A stretch of DNA of 64,000 bases from an uncultured virus (IMG/VR IMGVR_UViG_3300011871_000003) (Duplodnaviria > Heunggongvirae > Uroviricota > Caudoviricetes): the IMG/VR virus record IMGVR_UViG_3300011871_000003, one strand, 5' to 3'. Numbering within the stretch: the stretch's first letter is position 1; each line of letters starts with the position of its first letter. The translations under genes were made by a program, and so were the position numbers. Of this stretch, positions 2,309 through 43,470 are shown piece after piece. The notes under the pieces are model-generated. The model was not told the DNA's origin, made no database searches, and worked only from the letters and a program-made list of their open reading frames with translations.

Positions 2309-2869
2309 ATGAGTAAGATTTCAGAAATAAAAAGAAGAAAGGGTTTTTCATTATTAGAGTTATTGCTTGTTTTAGGTATAATAGCTGCTTTAATTGTTGC
2401 CGCTTTTATAGTTTATCCCAAAGTAAGAACCTCTCAAATAGTGGATGCTGAATCTAAAAACATAGCTACAATAAGAGGAGGATTGTTATCATTGTATTCA
2501 GCAACAACGGATATAACAACCGTTAACAATACTGTAGGAATCAATGCACAAATATTTCCTGATAATATGTTAGTGAAGAGTGGAAGCTCTGTAGTAGATG
2601 TTGTTAATGGTTTTAAAGGTAAAGTAACTCTATCAGCAACTAACTATGCTTCATATGGAAAGGTTGTATTTAATATAGGTTATGCGAATGTCCCTCAAGA
2701 TGCTTGCGTAAAACTTGTTGCTGCAGTTGCTCCAAGTATGTCAATAATCAATATTGGCGGAAGCATAGTGAAAAGCGATATATCGAATATAGATTGGAAT
2801 ATAGCGAATGCTGCTACAGCATGTAATTCTTCTGGAGTAAGCTCAACGATTTCTTTCTCTTTTTATTAA
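2309..2869 (+). CDS. type IV prepilin, PilS-like
   Basis: class III signal RRKG|FSLLE, hydrophobic helix, NGFKG.V, YANVPQDAC, second C-terminal Cys. Confidence 0.88.
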   Translation: MSKISEIKRRKGFSLLELLLVLGIIAALIVAAFIVYPKVRTSQIVDAESKNIATIRGGLLSLYSATTDITTVNNTVGINAQIFPDNMLVKSGSSVVDVVNGFKGKVTLSATNYASYGKVVFNIGYANVPQDACVKLVAAVAPSMSIINIGGSIVKSDISNIDWNIANAATACNSSGVSSTISFSFY

Positions 2870-9282: not shown

Positions 9283-10300
9283 ATGAAACATATTCAATCA
9301 GAAGATAAAAAAGTAACAAAATACCTCCNNNNNNNNNNNNNNNNNNNNNNNNNNNNNNNNNNNNNNNNNNNNNNNNNNNNNNNNNNNNNNNNNNNNNNNN
9401 NNNNNNNNNNNNNNNNNATACCTCCATGATAATGGCGCTGAAACATCAATAAAGTTAGCCTTATCAGGTGAATATGATGAAAACTTAAATTTACAACATA
9501 AAGATAATAATAAATACAGTATAGTGATTTCTGGAAGTGTTGGTTGTTTAATGTCATGTAAGTTTTGTCATATTACAACCAATAATATAAAACACAAAGA
9601 ACTAACCACAGGAGAAATCATATCTAATGTTATGGAATCTATTCAAAAGCAAGCTGAACTTACACCTGAAATAAAAAATAAGTTTATTAAGTTATGCTGG
9701 ATGGGATCTGGAGAACCATTAACTTATAGTGAAAAAGTCAAAGAAGCAACAAAAGAAATTGTGAAACAAGTTTTAGTGCAGAAACTTGCTGTAGGATTAG
9801 ATGGTGTAGATATCGCAACAACTTATCCTAAAACAAATAAATGGAAAAAAGATTTTTCTGAGCTAAATAAAGCGCTTAATAACATAGAATTAAATCCAAA
9901 GCATAATGGTAGTGCTTTACGTCTTTTTTATTCTTTACATAGTGCTTCAAATGCCACAAGAGAAAACTTAATACCAAACTCACGCTCTCCAGATAAAGCG
10001 ATGAGTGCTATATCAGAATGGTGTAAAACTAATAATGTAGATTTCATTATTCATCATATGTTTATCAATAATGTGAATGATAATATTTCTGATATTCGCT
10101 CTCTAAAAGATTTGTTAAGCAAAAATATAGGTGTAGCCACAGAATTTCGTATATTGCGCTATAACGCTCCTGACAATGGCACTAAAGAAAGCATCAAATT
10201 GAAAGAAATTGTGAGTGATTTAAAAACTTTCATACCTAAGATGAAAATCCAACATTCATCAGGAGCAGAAATAAAATCAGCATGTGGTCAATTTTTATGA
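9283..10300 (+). CDS. RlmN/Cfr-like radical SAM protein (spans N gap)
   Basis: CLMSCKFC cluster motif, MGSGEP, SLHSA, C-terminal SACGQF; ATG 9283 with GGAG RBS; gap flanks share ATACCTCC and join in frame as KYLHDNGAETSIK. Confidence 0.85.
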
Positions 10301-10993: not shown

Positions 10994-11533
10994 TTAATAA
11001 GATAAAAAGTATATTATACCATATTCATGTCTACTGCATTCATTAGCTAATAATGAAACATCAAGTTTACCATCATTCATAACATCAACAAGATTTTCAC
11101 CAATTCTTATTAAAGGAAAGTTAGAGCCTACAGCAGAAACAAGCTTAACACATTCTGCGGGAGGAACTCCGTTATAAACTATTTGAAATCCATCAGAAGC
11201 TGAAGAATTCATTGAAATAATAGCGCCAAACACACTAACATAACCTTTGAAACTATTGGTTAGCTGACCATCTTCATTAATCATATTATCTGGAGCAATC
11301 TTTGACTTTATAACTATATCATCAGATAAAGTATCATATGATGGCATAGAAGCATATAAAGATTTAACACCTGCTTGTAAAGCGGATATATTTTTAGCCT
11401 CTTGATCAACTCTTTGAGCAGATTGAACTTTAGGAAAAATAATAAAAGCAGCAACTATAAGAGCTGCAATAATACCTAAAACAAGCAATAACTCAAGAAG
11501 AGAAAACCCCTTATTTCTATTTATTTTATACAT
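10994..11533 (-). CDS. type IV prepilin, PilS-like
   Basis: RNKG|FSLLELLLVLGIIAAL, NSFKG.V, YNGVPPAEC, second Cys; start set at MYKIN (AGGAG RBS). Confidence 0.88.
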   Translation of the reverse strand: MYKINRNKGFSLLELLLVLGIIAALIVAAFIIFPKVQSAQRVDQEAKNISALQAGVKSLYASMPSYDTLSDDIVIKSKIAPDNMINEDGQLTNSFKGYVSVFGAIISMNSSASDGFQIVYNGVPPAECVKLVSAVGSNFPLIRIGENLVDVMNDGKLDVSLLANECSRHEYGIIYFLSY

Positions 11534-11632
11534 AAATACTCCTTTTTTATTAAACATATTATTGAAATCATTATCTTTTTATGATATGTTTACACAATAT
11601 ATAAACTTAACTAAAATTAAATGGAGAAAGTA

Positions 11633-11926: not shown

Positions 11927-12318
11927 TATATCTACGTAATTTTAGTTATTATCACTATTATTATGCTATATATCTCTAGAAATATTAACACTCAGCAGTG
12001 ATGAAATTCTCAGATTCCCTGCTGAAGGTTTATTACTATAATAAAAAAATATTTAAATATTCCTGAAGCTTTTCTTACTCATTAATAATAAAAATTATTG
12101 ATATACAACATTTATTATTATTGGAATGTTTTTTACATTTTTTATAAGAAATCATAATTAAGAAATATGTTACGTAAAAATTAGGTATTATCAATAAAAT
12201 AAATGATTACTTTTAATATTAATGGATGAAAGGTGTCTTGTTTAAAAAGATGTTAAATAAAAATAGATGAATTATTAAATTAATAAATAAAAAAGGAGGG
12301 GTAACCTCCTTATATTAT

Positions 12319-13914
12319 TTAATGTGTGCCATAGGTTGCATCATAAACATCTTGTTTTCTTGAGAAGTGAATATCTGTCTCAAGTGGATAGTTGTCGCAG
12401 AATTTAGGGCTGCGTTTAAACCATATAGATATATGATCGTCGAAATTAAATATATCAAAGTTACTGTTAGAAACCATAGGTTTTATTTTATTGTCACAAA
12501 TATGATTCCACTCATCTAAATTATCTAAAACAAATCCACCTTGTAGATTAGGTATATTACGTGCTCCAACATTATATGTTTTAAAGAAGTTGGTATTATC
12601 CGCATACATTAATCTATAAATGAAATTATGTTCAACTAAAGCAAGTCTAACAAATGAGGAAGTAGCTGTTCTACCATAGAGATTAACTTTTTTATCGCCT
12701 ATTTCTTCTCTATGATCTTCCATCTTCATGGCAATACTGTCATAAACATAACGTTTGTAATTAAAATCATGTTTTAAGGCGCTTCCATATACAAACGAGA
12801 ACCCACATACAGCTAATAAGGTAGCTCCAATAAAGAACATATTAATATATCCTTTTTTATCTAAGAAATAGAAAGACATTGCTCCAGCCATAAAGAAAAT
12901 ACCAACTATAGGAAAATCTCGTGGATTAAAGAACAATTCTCTTAAAAGTATAAATGGTCCCCAAATAGTTAAGAATAAAGTAAATGGAAGAGTGATTAAA
13001 AGCATACTTAATATCCACTTGCTTTCAAATCTGTATTCTTTATTCTGACTATTTTTAATGATTAAATAAATAATATTAATGAACATCATTCCAAAAGCGA
13101 CTTTAGCTAAATAATACATTTTTTCGCTTTTAAATGACTGGCACATATCTATAAATTCTTTAATAGAATATTCATAGCTAAAGAATAAGCTATTTATTGT
13201 AGGTTCTATCATATCACTTCTGAAAGCTACATCAGGATATACATATTTAAAAGCAGCCGCACATCCTAAATAATAAATAACACAAGATAATACATATATA
13301 GAACCATGATAGATAGTAGATTTTAAGATATTCTTATTTGTTTCTTTAAATTGGAACATTAAGTTAATTAAAAATAATCCAATATACATATTACTTGTAG
13401 GTTGATAAAGAGCGCTAACACCTACCAAGAATAACAATTGTATAATATAGGTTTTTATCTTAGATTCATTTTGATAAAAGAAAGCTAAAAGGATAAACCC
13501 AACAGAAAACATATTTCCGATAGAGTCGAATTGATATGATAAGTTCTGAATAAAAAATGGGTTACATGCTAATAATGTGAAAGGTAAAATATTAACCAAA
13601 TTTTTCTTTGGAAGCATTTTATCTGTAGCATAACAAACGGTATATGCAAAGAATAAAGTGCCAAATATTAATGGTATAGGTCCAATATTGTATATTGGAT
13701 TAATATTAAAGTTGAGTAATGCTATAAGAATAGTGGTTAAAGGTCTACCTTCATATTCCCATTGTCCTAAACCATTATCCATACGTGTAGTGTCATCCAT
13801 ATAAGGCACATCAGCCAATATAAGAGATAAAATAAATATCATACAGAAACCCAGCACAATACTAAACTTATATCCACCGCTGAATTCCCTTTCAATAAAA
13901 ACTCTTTTCAACAT
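12319..13914 (-). CDS. GtrII-like (GT-C fold) membrane glucosyltransferase
   Basis: YMDD..R..G...W..EGRPL, NPFFIQNLSYQFDS, LYQ motifs; about 10 TM segments plus soluble C-terminal tail. Confidence 0.85.
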   Translation of the reverse strand: MLKRVFIEREFSGGYKFSIVLGFCMIFILSLILADVPYMDDTTRMDNGLGQWEYEGRPLTTILIALLNFNINPIYNIGPIPLIFGTLFFAYTVCYATDKMLPKKNLVNILPFTLLACNPFFIQNLSYQFDSIGNMFSVGFILLAFFYQNESKIKTYIIQLLFLVGVSALYQPTSNMYIGLFLINLMFQFKETNKNILKSTIYHGSIYVLSCVIYYLGCAAAFKYVYPDVAFRSDMIEPTINSLFFSYEYSIKEFIDMCQSFKSEKMYYLAKVAFGMMFINIIYLIIKNSQNKEYRFESKWILSMLLITLPFTLFLTIWGPFILLRELFFNPRDFPIVGIFFMAGAMSFYFLDKKGYINMFFIGATLLAVCGFSFVYGSALKHDFNYKRYVYDSIAMKMEDHREEIGDKKVNLYGRTATSSFVRLALVEHNFIYRLMYADNTNFFKTYNVGARNIPNLQGGFVLDNLDEWNHICDNKIKPMVSNSNFDIFNFDDHISIWFKRSPKFCDNYPLETDIHFSRKQDVYDATYGTH

Positions 13915-13930: not shown

Positions 13931-15505
13931 TTATTTACTTTCTAAAGCATGTTGTTTAATATCAAATCGACTATCAACATCAGTTGGGTAATTATTACAA
14001 AATGTAGGTTCTCTTTTAAACCAAACAGAAATATGATCATCAAAGTTAAATATTTCATAGTTTCCGTTTTTTACAAGTGGAGCTATTTTATTCTTACAAA
14101 TAGCGTTCCATTCGTCTAAGTTATCCATGATAACACCGCCCTGAATATTATAAACATTACGAGCAGCTATACTATATTCTTTAAAGAAATTAGTATTATC
14201 AGGAAATATTAGTTTTGATAAAAATGGTCTAACCTCAAATGCTTTTCCGATATATGATGTCATAGCATGTCTTCCATAAACATATATTTTTTTATCTCTT
14301 ATTTCATCCATATTTTGCTCTATATTATTACTAATGCTATCATATACATATTTCCTATATGTATAATCTTGATTAAGAGCATTCCCATACATATAAGAGA
14401 AGGAAAACACACATAAGAATATAGCAATATTAAAAATGATGTTTATAAAGTATTTTTTATCTACAAGAGAAAAACTAAAAGCTATAAGCATACAAAAAAC
14501 ACCCATAACAGGAAAATCTCTTGGATTAAAAAAGAGTTCTTTTAATAAAATAAAAGGTCCCCATATACTAAATAAAAGTAATAGAGGTATTAAAATCAGT
14601 ATTAGTATAGAATGAATTTGTTCTTTATGTTCTATATTTGATTTTGTAATATTATAAATTCTATAAATAATATTGATAGGTAATAAAATAGCAGCAATAA
14701 TAATTAAATATAGGGAGATATCCTCTTTAAAATAAGCAAAAAGATTCATGAGTTCGTTCATGGAGAACTCATATGAAGCCATTATCTGATTAATATTGAT
14801 GAGATGATTTCTATTAGCTTGTTCAGTAAATAAAAAAGAAAATCCAATAAAATATAAAACATAATAAATAAGTATTCCAAATAAATAATAAGAAATGTGT
14901 CTTAAAGTATATTCCAGTATACTTTCATTATCCTTTTTAGAAATATTAAATAATATGCTAACACAAAATAAAGCAATATACATATTGCTTGTTGGTTGAT
15001 AACTTGCGCATGAAGAAGCTATTAATAAAGAAGATACTAAAAACTGTTTATATTTATTATCATTTTGATAGAAAAAAGCTAAAAGAATAAACCCAACAGA
15101 AAATAGATGCCCTATTGAATCATATTGATAAGACATATTTTGTAAAAAGAATGGATTACAAACAAGTAAAATAAATGGAAAAATATTTAGAATCGTATTT
15201 TTTAAATTCATTTTATTTGTTGCATAATAAACAGAATATGAAAAGAAAAATATGCCAACCAATAAAGGAAGTGGGGCAACATTGTAAATAGTTGTGAAAT
15301 TAAAATTTAAAAGTTTAAATAATAATGTTGTAAGAGGTCTTCCTTCGATTTCCCAATAGCCATAACCATTATCAAGACGAGTGTGATCATCCATGTATGG
15401 AACATTAGCAATGATAAGAGGGAGAACAAAAAGCAAACAAACAAAAAGAATAAGATTGAACTTATCCTTTCCTTCAAATTCCTTTAATGATAAAATGTTA
15501 AGCAT
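13931..15505 (-). CDS. GtrII-like membrane glucosyltransferase, tandem paralog
   Basis: same motifs (YMDD, EGRPL, NPFFLQNMSYQYDS); colinear with 12319-13914; start set at MLNIL (AGGAG RBS). Confidence 0.85.
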   Translation of the reverse strand: MLNILSLKEFEGKDKFNLILFVCLLFVLPLIIANVPYMDDHTRLDNGYGYWEIEGRPLTTLLFKLLNFNFTTIYNVAPLPLLVGIFFFSYSVYYATNKMNLKNTILNIFPFILLVCNPFFLQNMSYQYDSIGHLFSVGFILLAFFYQNDNKYKQFLVSSLLIASSCASYQPTSNMYIALFCVSILFNISKKDNESILEYTLRHISYYLFGILIYYVLYFIGFSFLFTEQANRNHLININQIMASYEFSMNELMNLFAYFKEDISLYLIIIAAILLPINIIYRIYNITKSNIEHKEQIHSILILILIPLLLLFSIWGPFILLKELFFNPRDFPVMGVFCMLIAFSFSLVDKKYFINIIFNIAIFLCVFSFSYMYGNALNQDYTYRKYVYDSISNNIEQNMDEIRDKKIYVYGRHAMTSYIGKAFEVRPFLSKLIFPDNTNFFKEYSIAARNVYNIQGGVIMDNLDEWNAICKNKIAPLVKNGNYEIFNFDDHISVWFKREPTFCNNYPTDVDSRFDIKQHALESK

Positions 15506-15681
15506 GTAAAACTGGCTCCTAATTTTTGAATATATTCTCATTGTTTATACAAACATAGCAAATTTTTAACAGGAAAAGCAAAAAAAACAAGATTGATGTA
15601 AACTTTTTGTTGTGCATGATAAAAAATTTAAGTATAATGTTTTTATCAAAATCAAACTGTTCATAATCTAAGGAAATAAAC

Positions 15682-16302
15682 ATGTTTAAGAAAATTACTG
15701 CTGTTCTCTTTGTTTTAGCATTAGTTGGTTGTTCTTCTGTCCCTAAAGAACCTGCTAAATACGTTGCTTTTCAAGAAAGTAAAACAAGTATTAAAGGAAA
15801 CCAAAGAGTTACTGAAACTTTCTTTGGTAGTGGAGTTCAATGGAATAAAGATTATGTAGTAACTGTTAAGCATGTATCTTTTATTAAAGATATTGCTTAT
15901 CAATCAGCAGATGGTATCGATATTCAGTTTGTTAAAAAATCGGCTGACAACGTAGTTATTCCACAATGGCGAGATCGTGTAGCGGGTGAGAGCGTCATTG
16001 TTGTAGGCTTGAATCAAAAAAGTAAAACAGAAGTATCTCAAGGTAAAGATCTAGATATTTCAGATGGTGATGGTGAGAAGATTTTGTATGTTACCTCGGC
16101 TCAAACAGTAGGTGGACAATCTGGTGGACCTGTATTTGGATCTGATGGTAAAGTTATTGGTATTCACTTTGGGGAAACTACAGGTATGAGTAATGGTAAA
16201 CTGGATGAGGCTTTTAAAGGACATAATTATAAAAAGTTTTCACTATATATTCCATATTCTGTAGTTAAGCAGGAATGGGATAAGTTCAATAAAGCGAAAT
16301 AA
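15682..16302 (+). CDS. lipoprotein trypsin-like serine protease
   Basis: lipobox LVG|C, VTVKH (His), DI (Asp), GQSGGP (Ser). Confidence 0.82.
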   Translation: MFKKITAVLFVLALVGCSSVPKEPAKYVAFQESKTSIKGNQRVTETFFGSGVQWNKDYVVTVKHVSFIKDIAYQSADGIDIQFVKKSADNVVIPQWRDRVAGESVIVVGLNQKSKTEVSQGKDLDISDGDGEKILYVTSAQTVGGQSGGPVFGSDGKVIGIHFGETTGMSNGKLDEAFKGHNYKKFSLYIPYSVVKQEWDKFNKAK

Positions 16303-16358
16303 TAAACAAACCCTGCCGACAGACAGGGTTTTATTTTTAAATAAATGGAGTTTTACAA

Positions 16359-16925
16359 ATGAAATTTTTTATCTTTATGATTGTTATCTTTATTTCTGGC
16401 TGCCAAACAAATTTAAAAAATAAGCATAGTTATGAAGTAAGTAATAATCCGCAAAATAAAATACTTTCACAAGGTATAGGAACACAATTTCCATACAAAC
16501 AAAAATATAGCTTAACGGCAGCTCATGTAGTAGATAAAGAAAAACAGATTCTATCTAAGCATGATAAATGTGATGTTGCTTTAATATACAAATCTTATAA
16601 AGCTTCTAATAATGATCCAATATTTGCTGAATCAAAAATTAATGAAAAAGTAGTAGCCTACGGTTTCCCTCATGGTAATAAAAAAGAAGTTGAATTATCA
16701 GGTAAAATAATTGGTTATAAAAATGTAACTAATGGTGATTATACAAAAGGGTGTGCCGTAGCTATTATGGATTTTAATGTCGAAAAGGGAATGTCGGGAG
16801 GACCAGTTTATAACAATAAAAATCAAATTGTAGGTGTTATTTTTGCTACTGATAAATACAAAAGACAATCCTATATGGTTCCTTATGAAAGTATAAAAGA
16901 TTGGTTAAATAAAAATAGAATATAA
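16359..16925 (+). CDS. lipoprotein trypsin-like serine protease
   Basis: lipobox ISG|C, LTAAHV, DVAL, GMSGGPV. Confidence 0.85.
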   Translation: MKFFIFMIVIFISGCQTNLKNKHSYEVSNNPQNKILSQGIGTQFPYKQKYSLTAAHVVDKEKQILSKHDKCDVALIYKSYKASNNDPIFAESKINEKVVAYGFPHGNKKEVELSGKIIGYKNVTNGDYTKGCAVAIMDFNVEKGMSGGPVYNNKNQIVGVIFATDKYKRQSYMVPYESIKDWLNKNRI

Positions 16926-17133
16926 AACTAATGTCGTAATATATAATAATATAATAATTTACTATATATTAAATAATAAAATATAACTTCACTAATATCA
17001 ATTATTAAAGATTTATATACTTAATAAAACCGCTTATCTAAATTATTATCATTATTGTTTATGAGTTGTTGTTTTTATTTGCATTAACTATATTATTTAA
17101 GGAGGATATTCTTATTTAATAATAGGTGAAAAA

Positions 17134-18999
17134 ATGAAGATTTTAAAAAGAAAAGGATTTTCCTTAATGGAAATGATGTTAGTGTTAGGGGCTTTTGCAG
17201 CGATTGTTGCAATAGGTTTTTGGATATATAGCATTGCCTCAGAAAGACAACGAATAAATACAGCACAAAAACAGCTTGCTTCTATACAAAAAGGAATAAG
17301 TGATATGTCAGGAATTTATTCTGATATCGATGAAGCGAGAACAATGTTATTAGGCAGTAAAACATTGCCAAGTAATATGATTAGTGGTTCAACGTTAGTT
17401 AATCCTTGGAAAGGTAAAATAACAATAACACCTCATAATGGAAGTGCTACTTTTTATGATGTTTCCTATTATAATGTTCCATCTAGCTCTTGTATAGATT
17501 TAGTCAATAAATCTCGTGTTTTTTATAGAACTGTAACGTCTACTAATTCTTCATTAACCAGTACAGATAGTGTAAATGGTATTGTAGATTTTTGTTCTAA
17601 AATATCTAAAAATGATGCTATAGTATTTTCTAACTTTTATACTGGTGACACCGTATATGAGGCCAGTGTTTCAAATAGTGTATCAACTTCAACGAGTGTA
17701 TCATCATCAATAAGTGCATCCACAAGTATATCAGCCTCAACTAGTGCTTCTAAATCAATAAGCACATCAGCGAGTATTTCGAATAGTATAAGTGCTTCTA
17801 CATCTACAAGTATTTCAAATAGTATAAGTACATCTCTATCAACTAGTGCTTCTAAATCAATAAGCACATCAGCAAGTATTTCGGCAAGCACCAGTACTTC
17901 TAAATCAATAAGCACATCGGTAAGTAATAGTTTGAGCGCTTCAACGTCAAATAGTATATCTAACAGTATAAGTGCTTCAAAATCATTAAGTACCTCAGTA
18001 AGCAATAGTATTTCAAGTAGTGCGAGTGCTTCAATATCGAGAAGTATATCTACAAGTGTAAGTGCTTCAACATCAGCAAGTCTTTCTAATAGTATAAGCT
18101 CAAGTGTTTCGGCATCAAAAAGTGCTTCAACCTCAGCTAGTTTATCTATTAGTGCCAGTGCTTCTAAAGTTGCCTCATTGAGTGCTTCGCAATCAGCGAG
18201 TATAAGTGCATCCAAATCTGCTTCTACTTCTGCAAGCTTGAGTGCCTCAACATCTTTATCATTAAGTTCATCCAGATCTGCTTCAATATCAGCAAGTGTT
18301 TCCAATAGTATAAGCTCAAGTGTTTCGGCATCAAAAAGTGCTTCAGCCTCAGCTAGTTTATCTATTAGTGCCAGTGCTTCTAAAGCAGCCTCATTGAGTG
18401 CTTCTCAATCAGCTAGCATAAGTGCTTCAAAATCTGCCTCTACTTCAGCAAGCTTGAGTGCTTCAACATCTTTATCATTAAGTTCATCCAGATCTGCCTC
18501 TACTTCTGCAAGCTTAAGTGCTTCAAGATCTGTTTCAACAAGTGTGAGTGCATCAGCGTCTTTAAGTGCCTCAAGATCATTAAGTACAAGTAGATCCGTA
18601 AGCACATCAGTTTCTATATCAAAAAGTATTTCAACAAGCCTTGCTAATAATGTAAACAAAGGAAATACGGTATTAACAACAGCGACACCAAATATTAAAT
18701 GTATAATTGGTAATGGTGGTGCAATGATGGGTAAATATTTATGTAGTATGACAGCTATGAGTGTAGGTGGAATAACATGGAAATTTACTTATTCTACATT
18801 CTATAATGCTCCAATAAAAGTAACGAATGCTCAAATAAATACGCCAAACGCTTTATTAAATTATTTAAATACATATAAGAGAACTTCCTACAAATTAACA
18901 GATTTTAATCTTACAGGAGATGCCGCTAGTATTTATAAACAAATATTAGCAAAATTTGCAAGTTCTGTATCAGGAACAAATTACGTAATAACATATTAA
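17134..18999 (+). CDS. type IV prepilin fused to about 325 aa Ser-X repeat stalk and unique C-terminal domain
   Basis: RKG|FSLMEM signal, pilin domain NPWKG...YYNVPSSSC...FC, then (S-x)n, then about 120 aa non-repeat tail. Confidence 0.85.
18088..18516 (+). repeat. 216-bp (72-codon) tandem duplication within the Ser-rich stalk
   Basis: AATAGTATAAGCTCAAGTGTTTCGGCATCAAAAAGTGCTTCA occurs at 18088 and 18304. Confidence 0.85.
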
Positions 19000-19212
19000 A
19001 ATATAAATAAAATACATAATAACTTAAATATATGTAAACATGTTAAAAGAGTAAATATACGACCGTATGTTTACTCTTTTTTTATTAATAAAATAATACA
19101 AAACATCATATATTATAGAATATAAAAATTATTAGCTTAGTAATATTGTTTTATTCTCTTATGAGAGTATTATTTAATAGACACATTTTGAAATATTTAG
19201 AGGATTTATAGT

Positions 19213-20595
19213 ATGAAAAAAGTAAAGGGAAAAGGTTTTTCTTTAATGGAAATGATGCTGGTTTTAGGATCTATAGCAGCAATTGTTGCTATAGGGTTTT
19301 GGATATATAGCATAGCATCAGAAAGACAAAGGGTAAATACTGCTCAAAAACAACTAGCATCTATACAGAAAGGTATAGAAGATATGTCAGGGATCTATTC
19401 TGACATTGATGAAGCAAGAACAATGTTGTTACAAAGTAAAGTTTTACCAAGCAATATGGTAAGCGGCTCTGATTTAGTAAACCCTTGGAGAGGTAAAATA
19501 ACAATAACTCCAAGAAATGGAAGTAATAATTTTTACAACGTTTCTTATTATAATGTCCCATCAAACTCATGTATAGATCTTGTAAATAAGTCTCGTGTAT
19601 TCTATAGAACTGTAGAGTCTTCAAACTCTTCTTTAGCTAATACTGGAAGTGTTAATAATGTTGTAGATTTTTGTTCTAAAATTGGAAAAAATGATTCTAT
19701 AGTATTTTCTAACTTTTATACTGGTGATACGGTATATGAAGCCAGTGTTTCGAATAGTATTTCTACATCAAATAGTATATCTACCTCAACAAGCGTTTCT
19801 ACTTCAATAAGTATATCAAATAGCATAAGTACAAGTATTTCAACATCTAAAAGTATAAGCTCAAGTATTTCAGCATCAACAAGTGCTTCAATAAGTAATA
19901 GTATAAGCTCATCAATATCTACTAGTACTTCAATAAGCAATAGTAAAAGTGCTTCAACATCAACAAGCATATCCAATAGTATCAGTGCTTCTAAATCAAC
20001 CAGTACTTCTATAAGTAATAGTATCAGTGCTTCGACGAGCACTTCAAAATCAATATCAGCAAGTGCTAGCGCATCAGCTTCTTTAAGTGCATCAAGATCT
20101 GTTTCAGCAAGTATAAGTTCGTCAAAATCATTAAGTACTTCAAGATCTGCCTCGATTTCAGCATCTACTTCTGCAAGTTTAAGTGCATCAAGATCTGTTT
20201 CTACATCTAAAAGTATAAGCATATCTAAATCTATTTCAGCCCCAGTTGTGGCCTCTGGTCAAAAAGATAACAATATGGTAAGCAGAATAAAAGGTAATAA
20301 AGTTTACTCAGCGCAGCCAGTTCCGCATTTAAATGGTTATATACTTGGTTATTTGGAATATATGTCATTTAATGTAAATGGTAAGATGTATTATGTTATG
20401 GCTAAAAATATGGGATTCGGTCTTGCTGGAGCGACAACAGCAAATACATATAGAATACCTGTAAACGTAGGTCAAGTTAAAAATATATCTAATGAAATAC
20501 AAGCAGCAACAACGGCTGCGCAAATGCAAGCTGTATTTAATAAGTATGGATTAGGAGCACTATATAATATATTACGAACTGGTTTCTATTATTAA
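19213..20595 (+). CDS. type IV prepilin with about 165 aa Ser-X stalk and distinct C-terminal domain
   Basis: pilin domain closely similar to 17134 gene; different tail. Confidence 0.85.
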   Translation: MKKVKGKGFSLMEMMLVLGSIAAIVAIGFWIYSIASERQRVNTAQKQLASIQKGIEDMSGIYSDIDEARTMLLQSKVLPSNMVSGSDLVNPWRGKITITPRNGSNNFYNVSYYNVPSNSCIDLVNKSRVFYRTVESSNSSLANTGSVNNVVDFCSKIGKNDSIVFSNFYTGDTVYEASVSNSISTSNSISTSTSVSTSISISNSISTSISTSKSISSSISASTSASISNSISSSISTSTSISNSKSASTSTSISNSISASKSTSTSISNSISASTSTSKSISASASASASLSASRSVSASISSSKSLSTSRSASISASTSASLSASRSVSTSKSISISKSISAPVVASGQKDNNMVSRIKGNKVYSAQPVPHLNGYILGYLEYMSFNVNGKMYYVMAKNMGFGLAGATTANTYRIPVNVGQVKNISNEIQAATTAAQMQAVFNKYGLGALYNILRTGFYY

Positions 20596-20738
20596 GTTAA
20601 AATTTAGGTAAATAAAAGGCTACTACGGTAGCCTTTTTAAATGATAATAATTATTATTTGTATTTGTTTGATCTTTTAAAAATAACAGGTTATTGTATTT
20701 AAGGATGTTTTATAAAATTATTTAGGAGTTTTTAGATT

Positions 20739-22106
20739 ATGTTTAAAAGGAAAAGTAAGGGATTTTCTTTAATGGAAATGATGCTCTCTTTAGGAGCTAT
20801 TGTTGCATTAATGGCTGTTATTTTGTGGGTATTTAACGTTATGTCTGAGAGGCAAAAGGTAAGTACGGCAATAAAAGGCTTAGGGTATATTCAACAAGCA
20901 ATGAATAAAATAGAAGGGTCTTATTCAAGTGTTGAAGAAGGGAGAAATATGATCCTTGGTGGAAATTTATTGCCAAGTAATATGAAACAGGGAAATAGAT
21001 TAGTTAATCCTTGGGATGGTGAAATAACAATAACAGATCATGATGGAACAAATGAATTTTATGACATTACTTATTATAAAGTAACAGAGAAATCCTGTCC
21101 AGATCTTGTAGGAAGATCAAGGCCATTATTTAAAAGTGTAATAAGAAAATCAGATACTAAAACAATAAATAGTGATTCATCAATAACTGATATAGTAACT
21201 TTTTGTAAAAACTCACTAAATGATGGGATTATATTCTCAAGTTATTACGAAGGCGATACAGTTTATAAAACAAGTGTTTCAACCAGTGTATCTAATAGTA
21301 TAAGCACCTCTGTATCCACAAGTGTATCAACATCAAAAAGTATAAGTACATCCGTATCAGCTTCTGTTAGTGCATCTGTTAGTGCGAGTGTGAGTGCCTC
21401 TACATCAGCATCTAAAAGTATTTCAACAAGCAAATCTATAAGTTCAAGCATTTCAACAAGTATAAGTGCTTCCGCTTCTGCTTCAAAAAGTGTATCAACA
21501 AGTGATAGTATATCAAACAGTATATCAGCATCTGCTGCCAATAATATAGATGCGGTGATGACCAGTAAAAGTATGTATTATGTAAGTGATGGTGGTCTAG
21601 ATGGTGTAGAAGAATGGTATGAATATAAAACTACAACAGGTACTTGTAGTTTTGAACATTACCAATATAATATGCCAGCTACGATACTAACAACTTTACC
21701 TCATGTAAATGCTATTCAAATGTCAAATATATTAAGTGATAGATACTATGTATTAAAAACAGGTTATAGTTGGGGGACAGGTAAATTAGCTTGTTCTTCT
21801 CATGCTACATATTGTGATTTAGGTGATTATGCAACTGCTGGAATTGGAAATATGTTTAGAATACCTAAAACATTAACGAATGCAAAAGTATATAGTGAAT
21901 TAAATGATCATATATTAGGCTCTGCCAATTTTCCAACAATAATGAATGAGTTTAGAAGATTATATTACAATGTTCCTTTCTCTCCAGCAGCTCGTGTGGT
22001 ATGGAGTTGCACGACAGGAGAAAGATCCTCATTAGCTCTTGATAATAAAAACAGAAAAGTAATATATCGAGTTGGTAATAATATAGTGTCTCAATATGGT
22101 TTGTAA
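20739..22106 (+). CDS. type IV prepilin with about 87 aa Ser-X stalk and Cys/aromatic-rich C-terminal domain
   Basis: [18 protein letters not shown]...SC, GDTVY, (S-x)n, about 190 aa tail with 4 Cys. Confidence 0.85.
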   Translation: MFKRKSKGFSLMEMMLSLGAIVALMAVILWVFNVMSERQKVSTAIKGLGYIQQAMNKIEGSYSSVEEGRNMILGGNLLPSNMKQGNRLVNPWDGEITITDHDGTNEFYDITYYKVTEKSCPDLVGRSRPLFKSVIRKSDTKTINSDSSITDIVTFCKNSLNDGIIFSSYYEGDTVYKTSVSTSVSNSISTSVSTSVSTSKSISTSVSASVSASVSASVSASTSASKSISTSKSISSSISTSISASASASKSVSTSDSISNSISASAANNIDAVMTSKSMYYVSDGGLDGVEEWYEYKTTTGTCSFEHYQYNMPATILTTLPHVNAIQMSNILSDRYYVLKTGYSWGTGKLACSSHATYCDLGDYATAGIGNMFRIPKTLTNAKVYSELNDHILGSANFPTIMNEFRRLYYNVPFSPAARVVWSCTTGERSSLALDNKNRKVIYRVGNNIVSQYGL

Positions 22107-22236
22107 GATAAGATAAGATAAAAAAGCAAAGCTATACTTTTCAGGTATAGCTTTTTTTTTGAAAAAAATAGCTTGCATGTTACAAAATGATTAGATATAA
22201 TGTTGTCATTATTTAATCTAAAACAATAGGTAAAAA

Positions 22237-22630
22237 ATGAAGAAAAGTGAACTGATTAAAAAATTAAATGAAATCAATGGAGATCCAGAAGTTCTTGTAT
22301 GGAATGGTTTTGTTGGTGATTATCAGAAAATTTCTTCAAACGTGGAAGAAACAATGTTGTTTAAGGAGTGNNNNNNNNNNTAAGAATTTAGTATTTGAGG
22401 AAATGAAAAATCGTAAAAGTTTTGACGAGCTTCCAGAAGATCTAATGGTTAAATTAAGAGCAGAAGCGAAGGAGTATGCCTCTAAAAGAGAGTGGGAACT
22501 ACGCAATTTATATTTTGATGATGAGACAGCAAAAAGAGTATACGGAAAAAACAAGAAAAAAGTTGTTATACTGGAACTAAAAAATAGAGGTAAAGAAGCT
22601 TTCGATAGACTTGGTACGTTTAGTTATTAA
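22237..22630 (+). CDS. phage-type hypothetical protein (spans 10-N gap)
   Basis: ATG 22237 gives MKKSELIKKLNEINGDPEVLVWNG; continues after gap in the tracked frame. Confidence 0.6.
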
Positions 22631-23068: not shown

Positions 23069-24163
23069 TTAAATATTGAATTTTGAAATAGTCTGATTTA
23101 AAAAAGATACTTTATTCTTAATATTATCAGAAAGTCTTACAGTATTAATAGATAAGTTAGAGTTTTGTTGAGTAATAATATTAATTTCATCAACAGAAAT
23201 ATTCACATTTTCTATTTTTTCTCTCTGATAAAAAGACGCCTGACTAATTTTAGATAAAGAATCATTGATTCGTTCAATCATAATAGAAATTTCTTTTATA
23301 TATTCTTCATTTTTATTATTCAATGAGACAACCTTTTTAATTTGCCATGAAGAATTCTCTACCAATTTTTTAATATCTTTTGCTGATGTAGCACAGCTTT
23401 GAGCTAAGTTTCTTATTTCAGATGCTACAACAGAAAATCCCTGTCCATAAGAACCTGCTCTTGCTGCTTCAATAGAAGCATTCAAAGAAAGTATATTAGT
23501 TTTAAATGCCATCTCACTAATAAAGTCTGATATCTTATTTATCTCGGAAGATTGTTCACTAATATTATTTATAGATAACGTTAGCGTTTTTGTATTATCC
23601 AATGTTTCTGAAATGCTTTCCAAAGTATGCTGGGTATGATTATAAACTTCTTTTGCCTCATTTTCATTTTGATGAGAAAAAGCATACAAGTTTTTTATAT
23701 TATCAGCAGTATTTTGAATAGAGCGGTGCTCTTGTTCTGTTCTAACTGAAAGTTCATCATTACCTTTCTGTAGATTATTTACTTCAATAGAAATATCTTT
23801 TGCTGATTGATTTATAACATTAACAATATTGATAATAGAGTTTTGCATATCTTTAATTTGAGGTATAAGTTTACCAGCACAGTTCATTCCAAATAAGTCT
23901 ATAGGTGTATTTATTTTACCTAATGTTATTTCTTTGAGAGCATCTTGAATTTTATTAATAGGTTTAACTAAATAAATAGTCATGTAGGTATATATAAAAA
24001 AAGTTATAAATAATAATAAAAAAGGAATGGATATAAAAAACTTCATTGCAATGGGCTTATATTCAGAAAAATATAGCAATAAAGGAATAAAACAATAAAC
24101 TGAAAACGAAAAAAGAATAAAACAAATAAGTGTTCTAACAGAAATATCTTTTAAAAATTTCAT
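23069..24163 (-). CDS. methyl-accepting chemotaxis protein (2 TM, HAMP, signalling domain)
   Basis: TNILSLNASIEAARAGSYGQGFSVVASEIRNLAQ hairpin motif; start set at MKFLK (GGAGG RBS). Confidence 0.9.
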   Translation of the reverse strand: MKFLKDISVRTLICFILFSFSVYCFIPLLLYFSEYKPIAMKFFISIPFLLLFITFFIYTYMTIYLVKPINKIQDALKEITLGKINTPIDLFGMNCAGKLIPQIKDMQNSIINIVNVINQSAKDISIEVNNLQKGNDELSVRTEQEHRSIQNTADNIKNLYAFSHQNENEAKEVYNHTQHTLESISETLDNTKTLTLSINNISEQSSEINKISDFISEMAFKTNILSLNASIEAARAGSYGQGFSVVASEIRNLAQSCATSAKDIKKLVENSSWQIKKVVSLNNKNEEYIKEISIMIERINDSLSKISQASFYQREKIENVNISVDEINIITQQNSNLSINTVRLSDNIKNKVSFLNQTISKFNI

Positions 24164-24377
24164 ACAGCCTCCTATGTTTTTAAATAAATAGCACGAAATA
24201 ACAAAAAAATAAAGATGACGCAAAAGAAATTTAACATTTAATGATAGATTGGAATAATCAGGAGAAAAAAGAAAGAAAAGGAATAAGTTCTTGAGAAGCA
24301 TGGGTAAGTACGATATAATCAAAACCTTAGTTAGATAATTTATAAATATGTCATTTTAAATAAAAAGAGGAAAAAAT

Positions 24378-25371
24378 ATGTCACATTTCGTCGTTGTTGT
24401 AGTCGGTGAAGAAAATCTTAAGCAAACTCTTGCTCCATTCCAAGAAAGTCCCTCAGATCCAAAAGAAAGTGGCTTTTGTGTATTTGTAAATAAAAACGAA
24501 GATAAAGAAGCTCAAGAAGATTATAAAACAGGTAAAACCGCTATTGTTGAACTTAATGGAATAAAATACAGTCGTTATAGTAGTGAAGTTCGTAAGTATG
24601 AAAAGTATGTAAATTCCAAAGATATTTTTGGAGAGAAAGTTTTAGAACTTCCAGAAGGATCTAAAGAGTATGAAGGTTCTTTAAGTATTCTGTATCCTAC
24701 TTTTGAGGATTATTTATCAGAATATTGTGGACATGAATATGACGAATCTCAAGGTGCTTACGGTTATTGGAAAAATCCTAATGCTAAATGGGATTGGTAT
24801 GAAATTGGTGGTGGTTGGACAGGTTTCTTTAAAGGTAAGGCGGCGGCTAAAGGTGTCTACTGGATCTCCGGGACTAATGACACCATCAGCAAAAGAAGGT
24901 TATTATGACAGGATCAGGATCAAAGACATCGACTTTGAAGGTATCGAAAAAGAGGCAATTCAAGACGCAAATAAAGTATATGATAAGATTGAATCCATTT
25001 TAAAAGGAAGAAAATATCCATCTTGGACAGAAATTCGAGAAAAGCATGGTGAAAAAATTGATGCTGCAAGAGAAGAGTATCGTAACCATGAAGTGGTGAA
25101 AGATTTTGACAAAGCTAAATTCTTTATTTGGGGTGATTTTTATGATGAATATGCTGCTTCAAGAGAGGAATATGTTGAAAAACGCCGTGTAGGAGCAATT
25201 GTTCCATTCGCCTTTGTTAAAGATGGTCAGTGGGTAGAGAAAGGTGAAATGGGTTGGTTTGGTATGACAAGTAATGAGAAAGAACAAAATGATTGGAACA
25301 AAGAGTTTTATGACATGATTAAATCTCTTCCAGAAGATACTCTGCTAACTGTTGTAGATTGTCATATTTAA
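24378..25371 (+). pseudogene. conserved phage-type protein split by a frameshift near 24830-24860
   Basis: NPNAKWDWYEIGG in first frame, continuation ...AFVKDGQW.EKGEMGWFG...VDCHI in +1 frame; intact shorter paralog at 27619. Confidence 0.7.
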
Positions 25372-25440: not shown

Positions 25441-26520
25441 ATGGGATCGTTTAATACTACTTGTGCAGTTAGCCATGCCTCTATTAGAGATGGAGATAAA
25501 GTTCGTCTATTCTTTTTACTTTCAAACCAATTTAGTTATAATTTTGATCCACAAAGAGATTCGATTAATAAAGGAGGGCAATGTTATCCTTGGGATGATT
25601 TTACAATAATTGGTGGTGTTTCTATTCCGGCGACTTATGTTGATTATGGTTCTTACGATTTTGATGAAAAATCCATTGAGGCTCTTTATATTCATGATTT
25701 CATTACTACTAATTATGTAGAAAATGTTTCAGAAAAAGGTAGAGAATATAATGAATTCCATGATCACATGAATGTAAAAGTAGAAGATCTATCTTGGAGT
25801 AAAATTCAGCATATGATTAATAGTGGGCGTTTATTCTTGAATGGTAGTGGATATAATAAAGATAAAAGCAATCTCCCTTTTGTCGCTGTTTTTGCTGTTC
25901 ATGAAAATGTATATCAGGTGATGATCGGTTCAGATGAACAGATTGAAAATGAATTATCAAATAGTGAAATTGATAAGGCCGGTAATCATTTCTCTATCAT
26001 TGAAAAAAGATTTTTCAATTTACAACCTATAGCTAATGCAGAAGAACCTACTATGGGAATGAAACAGTTAGCTAAAAAATTGAATTTAAATACAGATAAT
26101 AAAAAAATAGAACGAGCAGCTTTAGAAACAGATAAATTTCTAATCAGTATGTATTGTTATAATCTGATGTTGCGTCCAGTAAGAACATCAGGACAAGACG
26201 GAGATTTAGAAAGTGAAGTTAATTTTATGAGAAGAATCGCATCTGCTGTTGAAAATATTCCAGAGAAGTGGGATGATACATTACCAACAAATAAGTTTAG
26301 TTTAAATTGGCAAGAAGTAAATTTTTCTGATTTACAGAAAATGATTAAACAATGTTATAATCATTTAGATGATGAGGAATATTTATATTTTGCTAAGATG
26401 ATAGAAGGTAAAGATAAAATTATAATTGAATCGGAAGATTGGGAAAAGAATGAATATTATGAATATTTAGCAGATTTTTTCTCTAATAAAGTTTTACCAC
26501 TTCATATTTTAAACAAATAA
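25441..26520 (+). CDS. hypothetical protein (MGSFNTTC N-terminus, phage-type)
   Basis: 359 aa ORF, AGGTG RBS, flanked by terminators. Confidence 0.7.
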   Translation: MGSFNTTCAVSHASIRDGDKVRLFFLLSNQFSYNFDPQRDSINKGGQCYPWDDFTIIGGVSIPATYVDYGSYDFDEKSIEALYIHDFITTNYVENVSEKGREYNEFHDHMNVKVEDLSWSKIQHMINSGRLFLNGSGYNKDKSNLPFVAVFAVHENVYQVMIGSDEQIENELSNSEIDKAGNHFSIIEKRFFNLQPIANAEEPTMGMKQLAKKLNLNTDNKKIERAALETDKFLISMYCYNLMLRPVRTSGQDGDLESEVNFMRRIASAVENIPEKWDDTLPTNKFSLNWQEVNFSDLQKMIKQCYNHLDDEEYLYFAKMIEGKDKIIIESEDWEKNEYYEYLADFFSNKVLPLHILNK

Positions 26521-35472: not shown

Positions 35473-36033
35473 ATGAATATTTTTTATAAAGATAAAAAAG
35501 GAAAAGGATTTTCTTTATTAGAGTTATTATTAGTACTAGGAGTTATAGCAGCTCTTATAGTAGGAGCATTTATTGTTTATCCAAAAGTAAGAAACTCGCA
35601 ATCAATAGATGCCGAGGCAAAGAATATTGCAACAATAAGATCAGGAATATTAGCTTTATATGCCTCTCAAGCAACAATATCAGGAGGATTAAATAACTCA
35701 ATAGCAATACAGGCGCAAATATTTCCAGACAACATGCTTATAAAAAATGGAAGCGCTGTTTCAAAAGTTGTAAATAGTTTTGGAGGGGACGTAATTTTAG
35801 TTACAGGTTTATGGTATGGAAAAACAGTAGCTACTTTACAATATAATAATGTTCCAACAGAGCTTTGTACAAAGTTAATTACCGCAGTAGGATCTAATAT
35901 GTTTTTAGTAACAGCAGGCGGATATTGGGCTTTGAATGAAAATGTTGGTGTTCCTTATAGTGTAGCAAACGTTTCAAAAGCTTGTGGTCAAATAACAGAC
36001 AATAATACAGTAATAAATTTCTATTTTGAATAA
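35473..36033 (+). CDS. type IV prepilin, PilS-like
   Basis: KGKG|FSLLE, IFPDNM, NSFGG.V, YNNVPTELC, second Cys. Confidence 0.88.
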   Translation: MNIFYKDKKGKGFSLLELLLVLGVIAALIVGAFIVYPKVRNSQSIDAEAKNIATIRSGILALYASQATISGGLNNSIAIQAQIFPDNMLIKNGSAVSKVVNSFGGDVILVTGLWYGKTVATLQYNNVPTELCTKLITAVGSNMFLVTAGGYWALNENVGVPYSVANVSKACGQITDNNTVINFYFE

Positions 36034-36249: not shown

Positions 36250-36816
36250 ATGAGTAAATTTTTAAAAATGAAAAAAGGAAAGGGATTTTCTTTATTGGAA
36301 TTATTATTGGTATTAGGAATAATAGCAGCATTAATCGTAGCAGCTTTTATTGTCTATCCAAAAGTAAGAACATCTCAGGCAGTGGATGCTGAGGCAAAAA
36401 ATATAGCAACAATAAGATCTGGAATATTAGCATTGTATGCCTCTCAAGCAACAATAGCTGGGAATATCAATAATACTATAGCAATAAATGCGAATATATT
36501 CCCTGAAAATATGTTACAAAAAAGTGGAAATACAGTAACAGGAGTTGTTAATAGTTTTGGAGGTAAAGTAACATTAAGTGCAACAAATTGGGTATCTTTT
36601 GGTAAAGTGGTCGCAAACGTTCAGTATGATAATGTTCCTAAAGATGTATGTGTTAAACTAATAACGGCTGTTGGTCCAACTATGGAAATTATTGCTGTAG
36701 GCTCTTATTGGGCTAAAAATGAGATGGCTAACGTATCTTATAGTGTATCCAATACTGCTGATGTTTGTGATAAGATATCAGGAGAAAATGGTACAATAAC
36801 ATTCTCATTCCAATAA
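36250..36816 (+). CDS. type IV prepilin, PilS-like, tandem paralog
   Basis: KGKG|FSLLE; close paralog of 35473 and 2309 genes. Confidence 0.88.
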   Translation: MSKFLKMKKGKGFSLLELLLVLGIIAALIVAAFIVYPKVRTSQAVDAEAKNIATIRSGILALYASQATIAGNINNTIAINANIFPENMLQKSGNTVTGVVNSFGGKVTLSATNWVSFGKVVANVQYDNVPKDVCVKLITAVGPTMEIIAVGSYWAKNEMANVSYSVSNTADVCDKISGENGTITFSFQ

Positions 36817-42783: not shown

Positions 42784-43470
42784 ATGAACATATCTGGTGC
42801 GACAGAAATGCAGATTGAGTGTATCAAAGAACATATTGAGTACATAGATGCTTGTCTAGAAAAAACATTATCTAATCTAAAGAAAAAAGAGTCATATTAT
42901 GCTTTGAATGAAAAAGGCCAATTCGAAATTGAGTACATATTAAACTACATTTTAATCGCTGATAAATATTGTGAAGATGTTATTCGTAAGATTTATCAAA
43001 ATGTAGGTTTCGTTGATATTAAATTTAAGGGGCAGAATATTACCTTATTAGTTGATCCTAAGATCCAAAAAATAAATGAGGACTTGGAATATTTTAGCCA
43101 TTTTTCTTCATTAGAAGAAATAGTAAAAATAAATAATGAGATTATGGCTTTAGATTTAAAGACTTCTTGTGAGCATATCATCGATGTTATTGATGACAAG
43201 ATCGAAAATAACAATNNNNNNNNNNNNNNNNNNNNNNNNNNNNNNNNNNNNNNNNNNNNNNNNNNNNNNNNNNNNNNNNNNNNNNNNNNNNNNNNNNNNN
43301 NNNNNNNNNNNAAAAAAGAAGATATTTCCACCGAGATTTGGAATGTTCGTTTAAATTTTGAAACAAGTTATAAAATTATTAAAAAATATATACGTCAAGG
43401 ATTTAAAAAAGTCGATTTTTGTTTAGGTATTCATGACAAAGAAAACTTGATTGTAAAACTAAAAGTATAA
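42784..43470 (+). CDS. hypothetical protein (spans N gap)
   Basis: ORF open on both sides of 43216-43311 gap. Confidence 0.55.
   Translation: MNISGATEMQIECIKEHIEYIDACLEKTLSNLKKKESYYALNEKGQFEIEYILNYILIADKYCEDVIRKIYQNVGFVDIKFKGQNITLLVDPKIQKINEDLEYFSHFSSLEEIVKINNEIMALDLKTSCEHIIDVIDDKIENNNXXXXXXXXXXXXXXXXXXXXXXXXXXXXXXXXKKEDISTEIWNVRLNFETSYKIIKKYIRQGFKKVDFCLGIHDKENLIVKLKV

Follow-up and report, generated by a model that had tools for sequence, protein, structure and literature searches.

Described systems and the locus studied here

Type IV pilins that carry a grafted C-terminal module form a described group: the survey of Raynaud et al. (2021; PMC8179133), in the part of its text available to us, counts more than 1,200 such proteins and 264 architectures, the linker usually being short, and notes that a flexible linker could permit a position in the filament body. 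In these modular pilins, PilB and PilC of S. sanguinis among them, an N-terminal pilin module bears a functional C-terminal module that is presented by the filament, and the modules are mostly recognisable domains (vWA, lectin folds). Here, we analyze three tandem genes, referred to as A, B, and C, in a 64,000-nucleotide stretch of DNA from an uncultured virus of the Caudoviricetes (IMG/VR record IMGVR_UViG_3300011871_000003), the whole of which is called the window below. The predicted proteins follow the same plan, but their linker is a stalk of 93-331 amino acids (aa) in which serine alternates with another residue (Ser-X), their C-terminal modules are orphans, and, unlike known modular pilins, they come from a tandem array that exchanges tails and resides on a phage-like element that lacks pilus machinery. 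A second virus record, G001, matches the window in collinear fashion (~93% identity overall, 86-97% per segment) and serves as the comparison throughout.

Other described systems share parts of this plan. The thin pili of IncI1 and IncI2 plasmids (PilS, and PilV with its shufflon) are likewise enterobacterial and type IVb, and likewise join a constant N-terminal part to alternative C-terminal ends. However, PilV has Shufflon_N and segments inverted by Rci, whereas A, B, and C lack Shufflon_N, have a head like that of PilS rather than PilV, and are separate genes that appear to recombine via the stalk (no search for sfx repeats or a recombinase was made). The minor pilins CofB and TcpB also combine a type IVb module, a flexible linker, and extra C-terminal domains (PMC8179133, same part); there, beta-repeat and beta-sandwich domains form tip trimers, whereas here the tail of B is modelled as an alpha/beta domain without a match among solved structures.

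In Gram-positive bacteria, the Ser-Asp (SD) adhesins of the Clf/Sdr type and the serine-rich repeat (SRR) adhesins hold a binding domain on a long, dipeptide-type serine stalk, and these stalks are O-glycosylated (PMC3794999, in the portion accessible to us). Export and anchoring are different: A, B, and C have a prepilin signal, no LPx[TSA]G motif, and basic stalks, and the prepilin type of the signal peptide argues against a route by accessory SecA2/SecY2 with glycosylation by GtfA/GtfB, as in Gram-positive SRR proteins. Moreover, any glycosylation here would be periplasmic, via GT-C membrane glycosyltransferases, while that of Gram-positive SRR stalks is cytoplasmic. A first-pass annotation of the window had treated the resemblance to Gram-positive stalks as an analogy, which agrees with the lack of LPxTG in the three proteins. 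Finally, TfpW and TfpO of Pseudomonas are membrane glycosyltransferases, and TfpW is a pilin-modifying enzyme encoded beside its pilin (bioRxiv 10.1101/2020.04.19.049825, partial text); an equivalent gene arrangement is present here, but the enzymes belong to the GtrII/GtrC family and the substrate is putative.

Three tandem genes with a common architecture

The first-pass annotation had reported three open reading frames (ORFs) that share KG/FSLMEM (the slash marks the predicted cleavage site) and a two-cysteine domain ending in GDTVY, followed by alternating-serine stretches of about 325, 165, and 87 aa and C-terminal domains of about 120, 120, and 190 aa. The ORF list and an alignment of the heads bore this description out, and the measured head/stalk/tail lengths were 174/331/116 aa in A, 174/171/115 aa in B, and 175/93/187 aa in C (Table 1). 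Each protein opens with a short basic leader and then G/FSLMEM. Invariant across the three heads were KG/FSLMEM, Gly8, Phe9, Glu13 (mature +5), two cysteines (120 and 154 in A), and the GDTVY end, with identities of 85% between the heads of A and B and 51% between those of A and C. The stalks contain 48-50% Ser in strict alternation, the register slipping only at Ser-Ser pairs, with single-register runs of up to 52 Ser in A. At the X positions, A, T, I, L, and V predominate, with K, N, and R also present; each stalk has 0-1 acidic residues and 5-17 Lys/Arg. Cysteines in the tails number two in A, none in B, and four in C, and a Shine-Dalgarno motif and a TAA stop were recognized for each of the three genes. 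As predicted from its sequence, each protein begins with a class III signal and continues with a head of PilS/bundlin/TcpA type that holds one disulfide pair, a (Ser-X)n stalk of uncharged to basic character, and, at the C-terminus, a small orphan domain.

Relationship of the heads to type IVb pilins

In an alignment of 12 diverse heads, Gly8, Leu11, Glu13, Cys120, and Cys154 were invariant, while Phe9 was present in 11 and replaced by Tyr in one. The prepilin domain TIGR02532 was recognized in A at 20.0 bits (cut-off 16.3), and the profile of the 12 heads matched solved structures of bundlin (1zwt, 6e-7), TcpA (8uhf, 1.4e-5), and PilS (1q5f, 0.069). PF08805 is a precomputed assignment on four of nine close relatives. 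The head is encoded in 124 plasmid records. Its best matches there, at 44% identity, come from enterobacterial plasmids 37-55 kb in size, where the genes bear the annotation 'type 4 pilus major pilin'; with the PilS from a complete pil operon of an IncI2 plasmid (which also comprises PilN, an ATPase, a platform protein, an A24 peptidase, PilV, and the shufflon) the identity is 30%. None of 50,697 phage records contained it. PF04917 (Shufflon_N) did not match A, B, or C, and it did match a neighbouring tail-fibre gene at 1.8e-11. By these comparisons, A, B, and C have the class III prepilin signal and the type IVb head, and the head looks like that of a major type IVb pilin, not like PilV. The first-pass annotation had considered the proteins to be minor or tip pilins; that assignment finds no support, given the proximity of the head to major pilins (44% to the plasmid proteins, 30% to IncI2 PilS, the bundlin and TcpA profile matches) and the lack of Shufflon_N.

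Orphan tail domains

Profile-profile comparisons among the A, B, and C tails gave probabilities of 0.12, 0.15, and 0.30% with shallow profiles of 3-5 sequences each, in accordance with the earlier statement that the C-terminal domains are dissimilar from one another. When the B-tail profile was searched against longer proteins, all seven matches were Ser-X pilins. A word-indexed search with tail C recovered only itself, a PDB sequence profile of tail C had a single match (E 0.28), and the ESM Atlas gave no usable match for tails C and A.

Structure prediction and a fold search on the tails had been suggested by the first-pass annotation, and the first of these succeeded for tail B, for which the model (predicted local distance difference test, pLDDT, 80.2; predicted template modelling score, pTM, 0.74) comprised one helix at the N-terminus, a sheet of four strands, and three helices at the C-terminus. 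The model indicates that tail B folds as a compact mixed alpha/beta domain. The fold search did not return a relative: with this model, Foldseek had no match in the PDB at E <= 0.001 (best 5.6e-2), VIA-align had none with Z >= 5 among 48,161 chains (best 3.9), and BFVD had none at E <= 0.001. The cysteine counts are even and conserved, with two in A tails and four in C tails, and an extracytoplasmic, oxidising location of the tails therefore fits. Thus far the proteins have, by sequence comparison, the head, stalk, and independently conserved tail of pilins with a grafted C-terminal module, as had been proposed.

Relatives, stalk length, and tail exchange

A hidden Markov model (HMM) search with the head of A produced 977 matches at E <= 1e-3, only six of which reached E <= 1e-30, and nearly all were ordinary pilins of ~180 aa. 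Among longer relatives, 13 had Ser-X stalks (P0001-P0006, P0008, P0010, P0165-P0169). More distant relatives had the same plan with other low-complexity linkers, specifically Gly/Thr/Pro-rich in P0009, Lys/Glu-rich in P0013, P0016, and P0026, and Pro-rich in P0087, P0113, and P0147. Only nine clusters at 90% identity closely shared the head. Scans of genome contigs recovered only remote pilins (29-35% identity) from unrelated phyla, those of viral contigs only G001 and one weak match, and a metagenome scan for relatives only short pilins. The Ser-X pilin family is rare.

The first-pass annotation had also proposed that the tails are swappable, and the relatives bear this out. On near-identical heads we found the A tail (P0165), the B tail (P0001, P0166, P0168), a new tail (P0167), and others (P0003, P0010, P0169). 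P0001, P0166, and P0168 are chimeras in which an A-type head and proximal stalk are followed by a B-type distal stalk and the B tail, and painting with seven-residue words located the A-to-B switch inside the stalk, no two of them switching at the same point. In P0167, an A-type head is joined to a further, different tail. Stalk length is also labile. A differs from its G001 copy by point changes and by insertions or deletions of 4, 72, and 4 aa only, all of which are even, in frame, and in the stalk.

Stalks ranged from 185-331 aa with the A tail, 171-215 aa with the B tail (219 by subtraction in P0168), and 93-137 aa with the C tail. The idea of graded distances, which the first-pass annotation had put forward with a reach beyond O-antigen or capsule as an example, does not hold in general, since length varies within a tail type and the A and B ranges overlap; only the C stalk being shortest was retained in every case seen. 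From these sequence comparisons, the stalk is a probable spacer of variable length and the site at which homologous recombination reshuffles tails.

Selection on the three genes and their occurrence

Serine in stalk A is encoded by both codon families (AGT 60, TCA 55, TCT 36, AGC 15, TCC 7, TCG 7), and the use of AGY as well as TCN codons indicates that the repeat is maintained at the protein level. In comparison with G001, nonsynonymous and synonymous differences (pN/pS) in gene B were 0.007/0.054 (0.13) in the head, 0.010/0.087 (0.12) in the stalk, and 0.004/0.133 (0.03) in the tail, and in gene C they were 0.012/0.391 (0.03), 0.034/0.312 (0.11), and 0/0.076 (0), respectively. Head, stalk, and tail are all, by this measure, under purifying selection. 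In public run X2, 16 of 20 changed codons in gene C were synonymous, and 19 of the 20 fell in the stalk. Because the changes relative to G001 and in run X2 are mostly synonymous, A, B, and C are, as judged from these comparisons, functional genes.

Ser-X runs of at least 12 pairs were confined to A, B, and C in the window, while 13 further database proteins have the same head-stalk-tail plan among the sequences read. Public data contained the locus in 20 runs, which belong to 13 studies and include wastewater, gut, groundwater, and isolate libraries. In two metatranscriptomic libraries of different studies (X15 and X17; window 15600-22200), contigs with 95-100% identity span the greater part of A, B, and C. 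In every run, contigs were interrupted inside the stalks. A 779-bp 'joint' in run X17 was disregarded, having just 22 letters on one side. Minus-strand ORFs inside the stalks (e.g., 17637-18305) were rejected as genes, being mirror images of the Ser-X codons. The sole other long Ser-X run in the 341-kb G001 record is a perfect (Ser-Val)19 at 57074-57187, in a minus-strand frame.

The carrier element and its pilin repertoire

The G001 record is 341,648 bp long, is classed as 'provirus', is rated 97% complete, and has a uniform GC of ~0.30. It contains tail-fibre pieces, HNH endonucleases, an RnlA-like ligase, and a MutS-like gene. Matches to the window ORF at 25441-26520 occurred in 85 phage records and covered at least 80% of the ORF in 21 of these; the best were at ~40% identity and in syntenic positions in phages of 355-378 kb (the group of Serratia BF, Pectobacterium CBB, Cronobacter GAP32, and Erwinia pEa_SNUABM). 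G001 has distant protein links to jumbo phages of the RaK2/GAP32/CBB type. PHROGs searches with 48 of the 58 G001 ORFs of at least 300 aa gave matches for 15, none of them a capsid, portal, or terminase protein; Terminase_6N, GPW_gp25 (baseplate), and the sheath family were not found in G001, and a Gp23 search matched neither G001 nor the controls, which makes it uninformative. Megablast had no match against phages or against E. coli genomes. Pilin relatives were located on contigs measuring 312, 452, and 541 kb, and the element may for this reason exceed the G001 record. We therefore use the term 'giant phage-like element' rather than proven phage, since capsid, terminase, sheath, and baseplate genes were not found in G001 and the element may be larger than that record. 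Names attached to the relatives are Salmonella enterica and Escherichia coli.

G001 yielded 11 pilin-domain matches. Three are the Ser-X pilins, and six are short pilins of 181-188 aa that resemble PilS and have alpha-1 segments almost identical to one another; the others are a truncated copy, a gene of 310 aa, and one of 209 aa. The 310-aa protein (213294-214226; L046:13294-14223) has a prepilin signal, no Ser-X stalk, and a C-terminal part without identification. An extra short pilin of 181 aa (161829-162374 in G001) is situated between the equivalent of the window pilin at 10994-11557 and the GT-C genes, where the window has a ~320-bp deletion at ~12089-12192. Three families of pilus machinery, PF00437 (the ATPase of T2SSE type), PF01478 (A24 prepilin peptidase), and PF00263 (secretin), were absent from the whole of G001, whereas the same searches matched in 14, 12, and 6 of 14 control genomes. 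If these pilins are in use, their processing and assembly must fall to a system of the host or of a plasmid.

Proposed mode of action and alternatives

Our main interpretation, in which we have moderate confidence, is that the giant phage-like element belongs to Enterobacteriaceae and that its genes A, B, and C specify modular pilins of a type IVb-like kind. A host prepilin peptidase would cleave after Gly8, and the head would be polymerised by type IV filament machinery of the host or of a co-resident plasmid, probably in co-assembly with the element's own short PilS-like pilins, given that the element has no ATPase, peptidase, or secretin. The stalk would form an extended spacer with a reach, at 0.25-0.34 nm per residue, of 23-32 nm in C to 83-113 nm in A; with the tail kept away from the filament in this manner, either a tip position or one along the shaft would be open to the subunit. 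At the DNA level, the stalk is also a recombination hinge, as the in-frame length changes and tail exchange between paralogues show by comparison. The adjacent GT-C pair may O-glycosylate the stalk in the periplasm, as for the TfpW substrate or Gram-positive SD/SRR stalks, and the tails may bind ligands on other cells or surfaces, remodelling the surface of the infected or carrier cell. A more ambitious version strikes us as rather unlikely: a giant Enterobacteriaceae phage with around eleven pilins, including an adhesin-like cassette on glycosylated Ser-X stalks, would build a phage-specified pilus on the infected cell by way of dormant or plasmid-borne machinery in the host, for instance as a tether to host cells nearby or to surfaces, with the stalk as both a mucin-like spacer and a tip-swapping site, the homologous-recombination counterpart of a shufflon.

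Several points weigh against this explanation. An HMM search for prepilin and PilS domains, which the first-pass annotation had suggested as a check, was favourable as regards the TIGR02532 score of A and the matches of the head profile, but PF08805 did not match A, B, or C as single sequences at E <= 0.01. B and C singly fall short of curated prepilin-domain cut-offs, with C at 17.7 bits against PF07963, under the cut-off of 21.2. Tails A, B, and C are without a match in Pfam, NCBIfam, and PHROGs, and the tail C model was unreliable (pLDDT 46.7) and was excluded from the fold search. That the element has no machinery of its own is uncertain, as G001 may be part of a larger genome, with relatives on the 452 and 541 kb contigs. 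The RNA-library contigs over A, B, and C are no proof of transcription, and cleavage, assembly, surface exposure, glycosylation, and binding are at present predictions. As for the enzymes, the GT-C family (GtrII/GtrC) is known for O-antigen glucosylation; the nearest phage homologues are GtrC of the P22 type (~28% identity), with 49 of the 54 matching records being from Salmonella phages; and neither gtrA (PF04138) nor gtrB (PF00535) is present in all 341,648 bp of G001, so there is no gtrA-gtrB-gtrC operon. GT-C and pilin genes are seen to adjoin each other in just two genomes, themselves 93% identical, and this adjacency is hence not independent evidence.

The GT-C genes are flanked on both sides by pilin genes in an order that is kept in G001: two lipoprotein proteases precede A, B, and C on the plus strand, while short pilins follow the GT-C genes on the minus strand, one in the window and two in G001. 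Glycosylation of the stalk is proposed because of this TfpW-like adjacency and because Ser-repeat stalks are glycosylated in Gram-positive bacteria. By this analogy, O-glycosylation of the stalk by the two adjacent enzymes is a tentative idea, and we put its likelihood somewhat short of even. A version in which the core pilin interpretation holds and the stalk is unglycosylated has close to an even chance; here, the GT-C proteins would be ordinary O-antigen-converting neighbours of the GtrC kind, and the Ser-X repeat a bare spacer or an amphipathic, beta-forming, silk-like segment. PF14264 and phrog_4829, to which both enzymes belong, are O-antigen conversion families, the closest phage homologues are those of P22-like Salmonella phages, and the prevalence of A, T, I, L, and V at X positions is the pattern of an amphipathic strand. 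The version without glycosylation is less at ease with GT-C genes that have neither gtrA nor gtrB within 341 kb, and with their position between pilins, the usual place of pilin-modifying enzymes such as TfpW (bioRxiv 10.1101/2020.04.19.049825, partial text); in addition, an exposed, unmodified stretch of 93-331 aa beside two periplasm-facing proteases would be prone to cleavage.

It is decidedly unlikely, in our view, that the proteins, though made and processed, are unproductive as filament subunits and instead jam or cap, with their bulky stalk and tail, a type IV pilus or type II secretion system of the host, or stay anchored in the inner membrane, so as to block pilus-dependent superinfection or conjugation or take over the envelope. 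An element with pilins and no assembly machinery would suit that role, as would the location of the genes within an envelope-modifying block of GT-C enzymes and lipoprotein proteases, and pilus modification is a known theme in phage defence (bioRxiv 10.1101/150227, from the part available). However, a plug requires neither three diversified and exchanged tails, nor selection on those tails (pN/pS 0-0.03), nor a stalk of up to 331 aa, and the six or more ordinary short pilins on the same element resemble building blocks.

A virion location is very improbable. Whisker-like tail structures occur on some phages of the CBB/RaK2/GAP32 group, to which the element is distantly related, and with a tail fibre gene 11 kb away the proteins might be hair-like fibres on a jumbo phage tail rather than cell-surface pilins, but the class III signal, the invariant Gly-1/Glu+5, and the hydrophobic alpha-1 segment direct them to the inner membrane and not to a virion assembled in the cytoplasm, the even and conserved cysteine numbers point to the periplasm or exterior, and the 50,697 phage records without the head include CBB/RaK2/GAP32 relatives. 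Functionless low-complexity repeats or decaying pseudogenes, which the simple repeats and mirror ORFs on the opposite strand might suggest, are scarcely credible given both Ser codon families, in-frame insertions and deletions throughout, pN/pS well below 1, and intact frames in two genomes and 13 database relatives.

If modular pilins of this type are assembled, they would represent phage-directed remodelling of a host surface organelle, as well as a simple natural design by which exchangeable domains are displayed at an adjustable distance from a filament. Stalk-mediated tail exchange would be an alternative to site-specific shufflons for generating adhesin diversity, and a GtrC-type enzyme that acts on protein instead of O-antigen would, if true, widen the known scope of that family. 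The first-pass annotation had raised whether the architecture is an already described family. This applies to modular pilins as such (PMC8179133, as available to us), and Ser-repeat stalks are known too; the union of the two is apparently undescribed in the open-access text searched, in which we found neither a Ser-X-stalked pilin nor a jumbo-phage pilin repertoire. New relative to known modular pilins are the very long basic Ser-X stalk, the orphan tails, the tandem recombining cassette, and a giant phage-like carrier without its own machinery.

Neighbouring features and further observations

Table 1. Coordinates, strands, and main attributes of features in the pilin region of the window
Feature	Position	Strand	Attributes
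Modular pilin A	17134..18999	+	621 aa; leader and head 17134-17655, Ser-X stalk 17656-18648, tail 18649-18996, TAA stop
Modular pilin B	19213..20595	+	460 aa; head 19213-19734, stalk 19735-20247, tail 20248-20592
Modular pilin C	20739..22106	+	455 aa; head 20739-21263, stalk 21264-21542, tail 21543-22103
216-bp tandem duplication in stalk A	18063..18512	+	2.1 copies, 91% matches; equals the 72-aa difference from the G001 copy
Terminator-like hairpin	19045..19080	+	16 pairs and T run, 3' of gene A
Terminator-like hairpin	22128..22154	+	12 pairs and T run, 3' of gene C
Trypsin-like protease with lipoprotein signal	15682..16302	+	…LVGC, read from sequence; PF13365, phrog_9683
Second trypsin-like lipoprotein protease	16359..16925	+	…ISGC; PF13365, phrog_9683
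GtrC/GtrII-like GT-C membrane glycosyltransferase 1	13931..15541	-	536 aa; PF14264 118.2 bits (cut-off 30), phrog_4829; divergent from protease-pilin block
GtrC/GtrII-like GT-C glycosyltransferase 2	12319..13914	-	531 aa; PF14264 90 bits (cut-off 30), phrog_4829
Short PilS/bundlin-type pilin	10994..11557	-	187 aa; PF08805 4e-20; downstream of GT-C genes, same strand
Short PilS-type pilin	2309..2869	+	186 aa; PF08805 1.8e-19
Short PilS-type pilin	35473..36033	+	186 aa; PF08805 1.9e-15
Short PilS-type pilin	36250..36816	+	188 aa; PF08805 2.6e-18

The terminator scan, which found 15 terminator-like sites in the region against 3.6 expected from shuffles, reported no hairpin between B and C. A scan for sigma-70 promoters (91 sites, 74.5 expected) gave no useful signal, the DNA being AT-rich. 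Runs of N are located at 9328-9417, 22370-22380, and 43215-43311 of the window, and that at 22370 is just 3' of gene C, within a small ORF.

By sequence comparison, the element has several modules in common with IncI plasmids. The tail-fibre protein at 33506-35131 (minus strand; phrog_523) carries a PilV Shufflon_N segment, and a PcfJ-like gene is located at 51480-52622 (plus strand); in an IncI2 plasmid, a gene with a PcfJ domain adjoins the pil/shufflon region. Separately, NZ_CP026209.1 and ~25 similar enterobacterial plasmids of 37-55 kb encode three orphan 'type 4 pilus major pilin' genes and no pilus assembly genes, besides a DotA/TraY protein, several DNA methylases, and proteins with ankyrin repeats. 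The window is reminiscent of these plasmids in its gene content, with an ankyrin protein (3236-4189) and a methylase (50395-51132).

G001 has 34 tRNA genes, with many repeated copies of Met-CAT, Leu-TAA, and Arg-TCT, and two that resemble amber suppressors, tRNA(CTA), at L040:10374-10447 and L044:14814-14888. TAG is the stop of none of the 54 long ORFs in the window and of 19 of the 276 in G001. Stop-codon recoding in G001 was rejected, none being shown; other parts of the element may have reassigned TAG in part. Two overlapping ORFs in different frames (window 24378-24908 and 24703-25371) match the N- and C-terminal parts of phrog_10079; since G001 has a single 330-aa ORF at that location (L009:17582-18574), a frameshift or sequencing error at 24378-25371 is indicated. 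The adjacent region encodes a signalling protein of the methyl-accepting chemotaxis type (23069-24322, minus strand), which matched PF00015 and phrog_8572 (2e-64).

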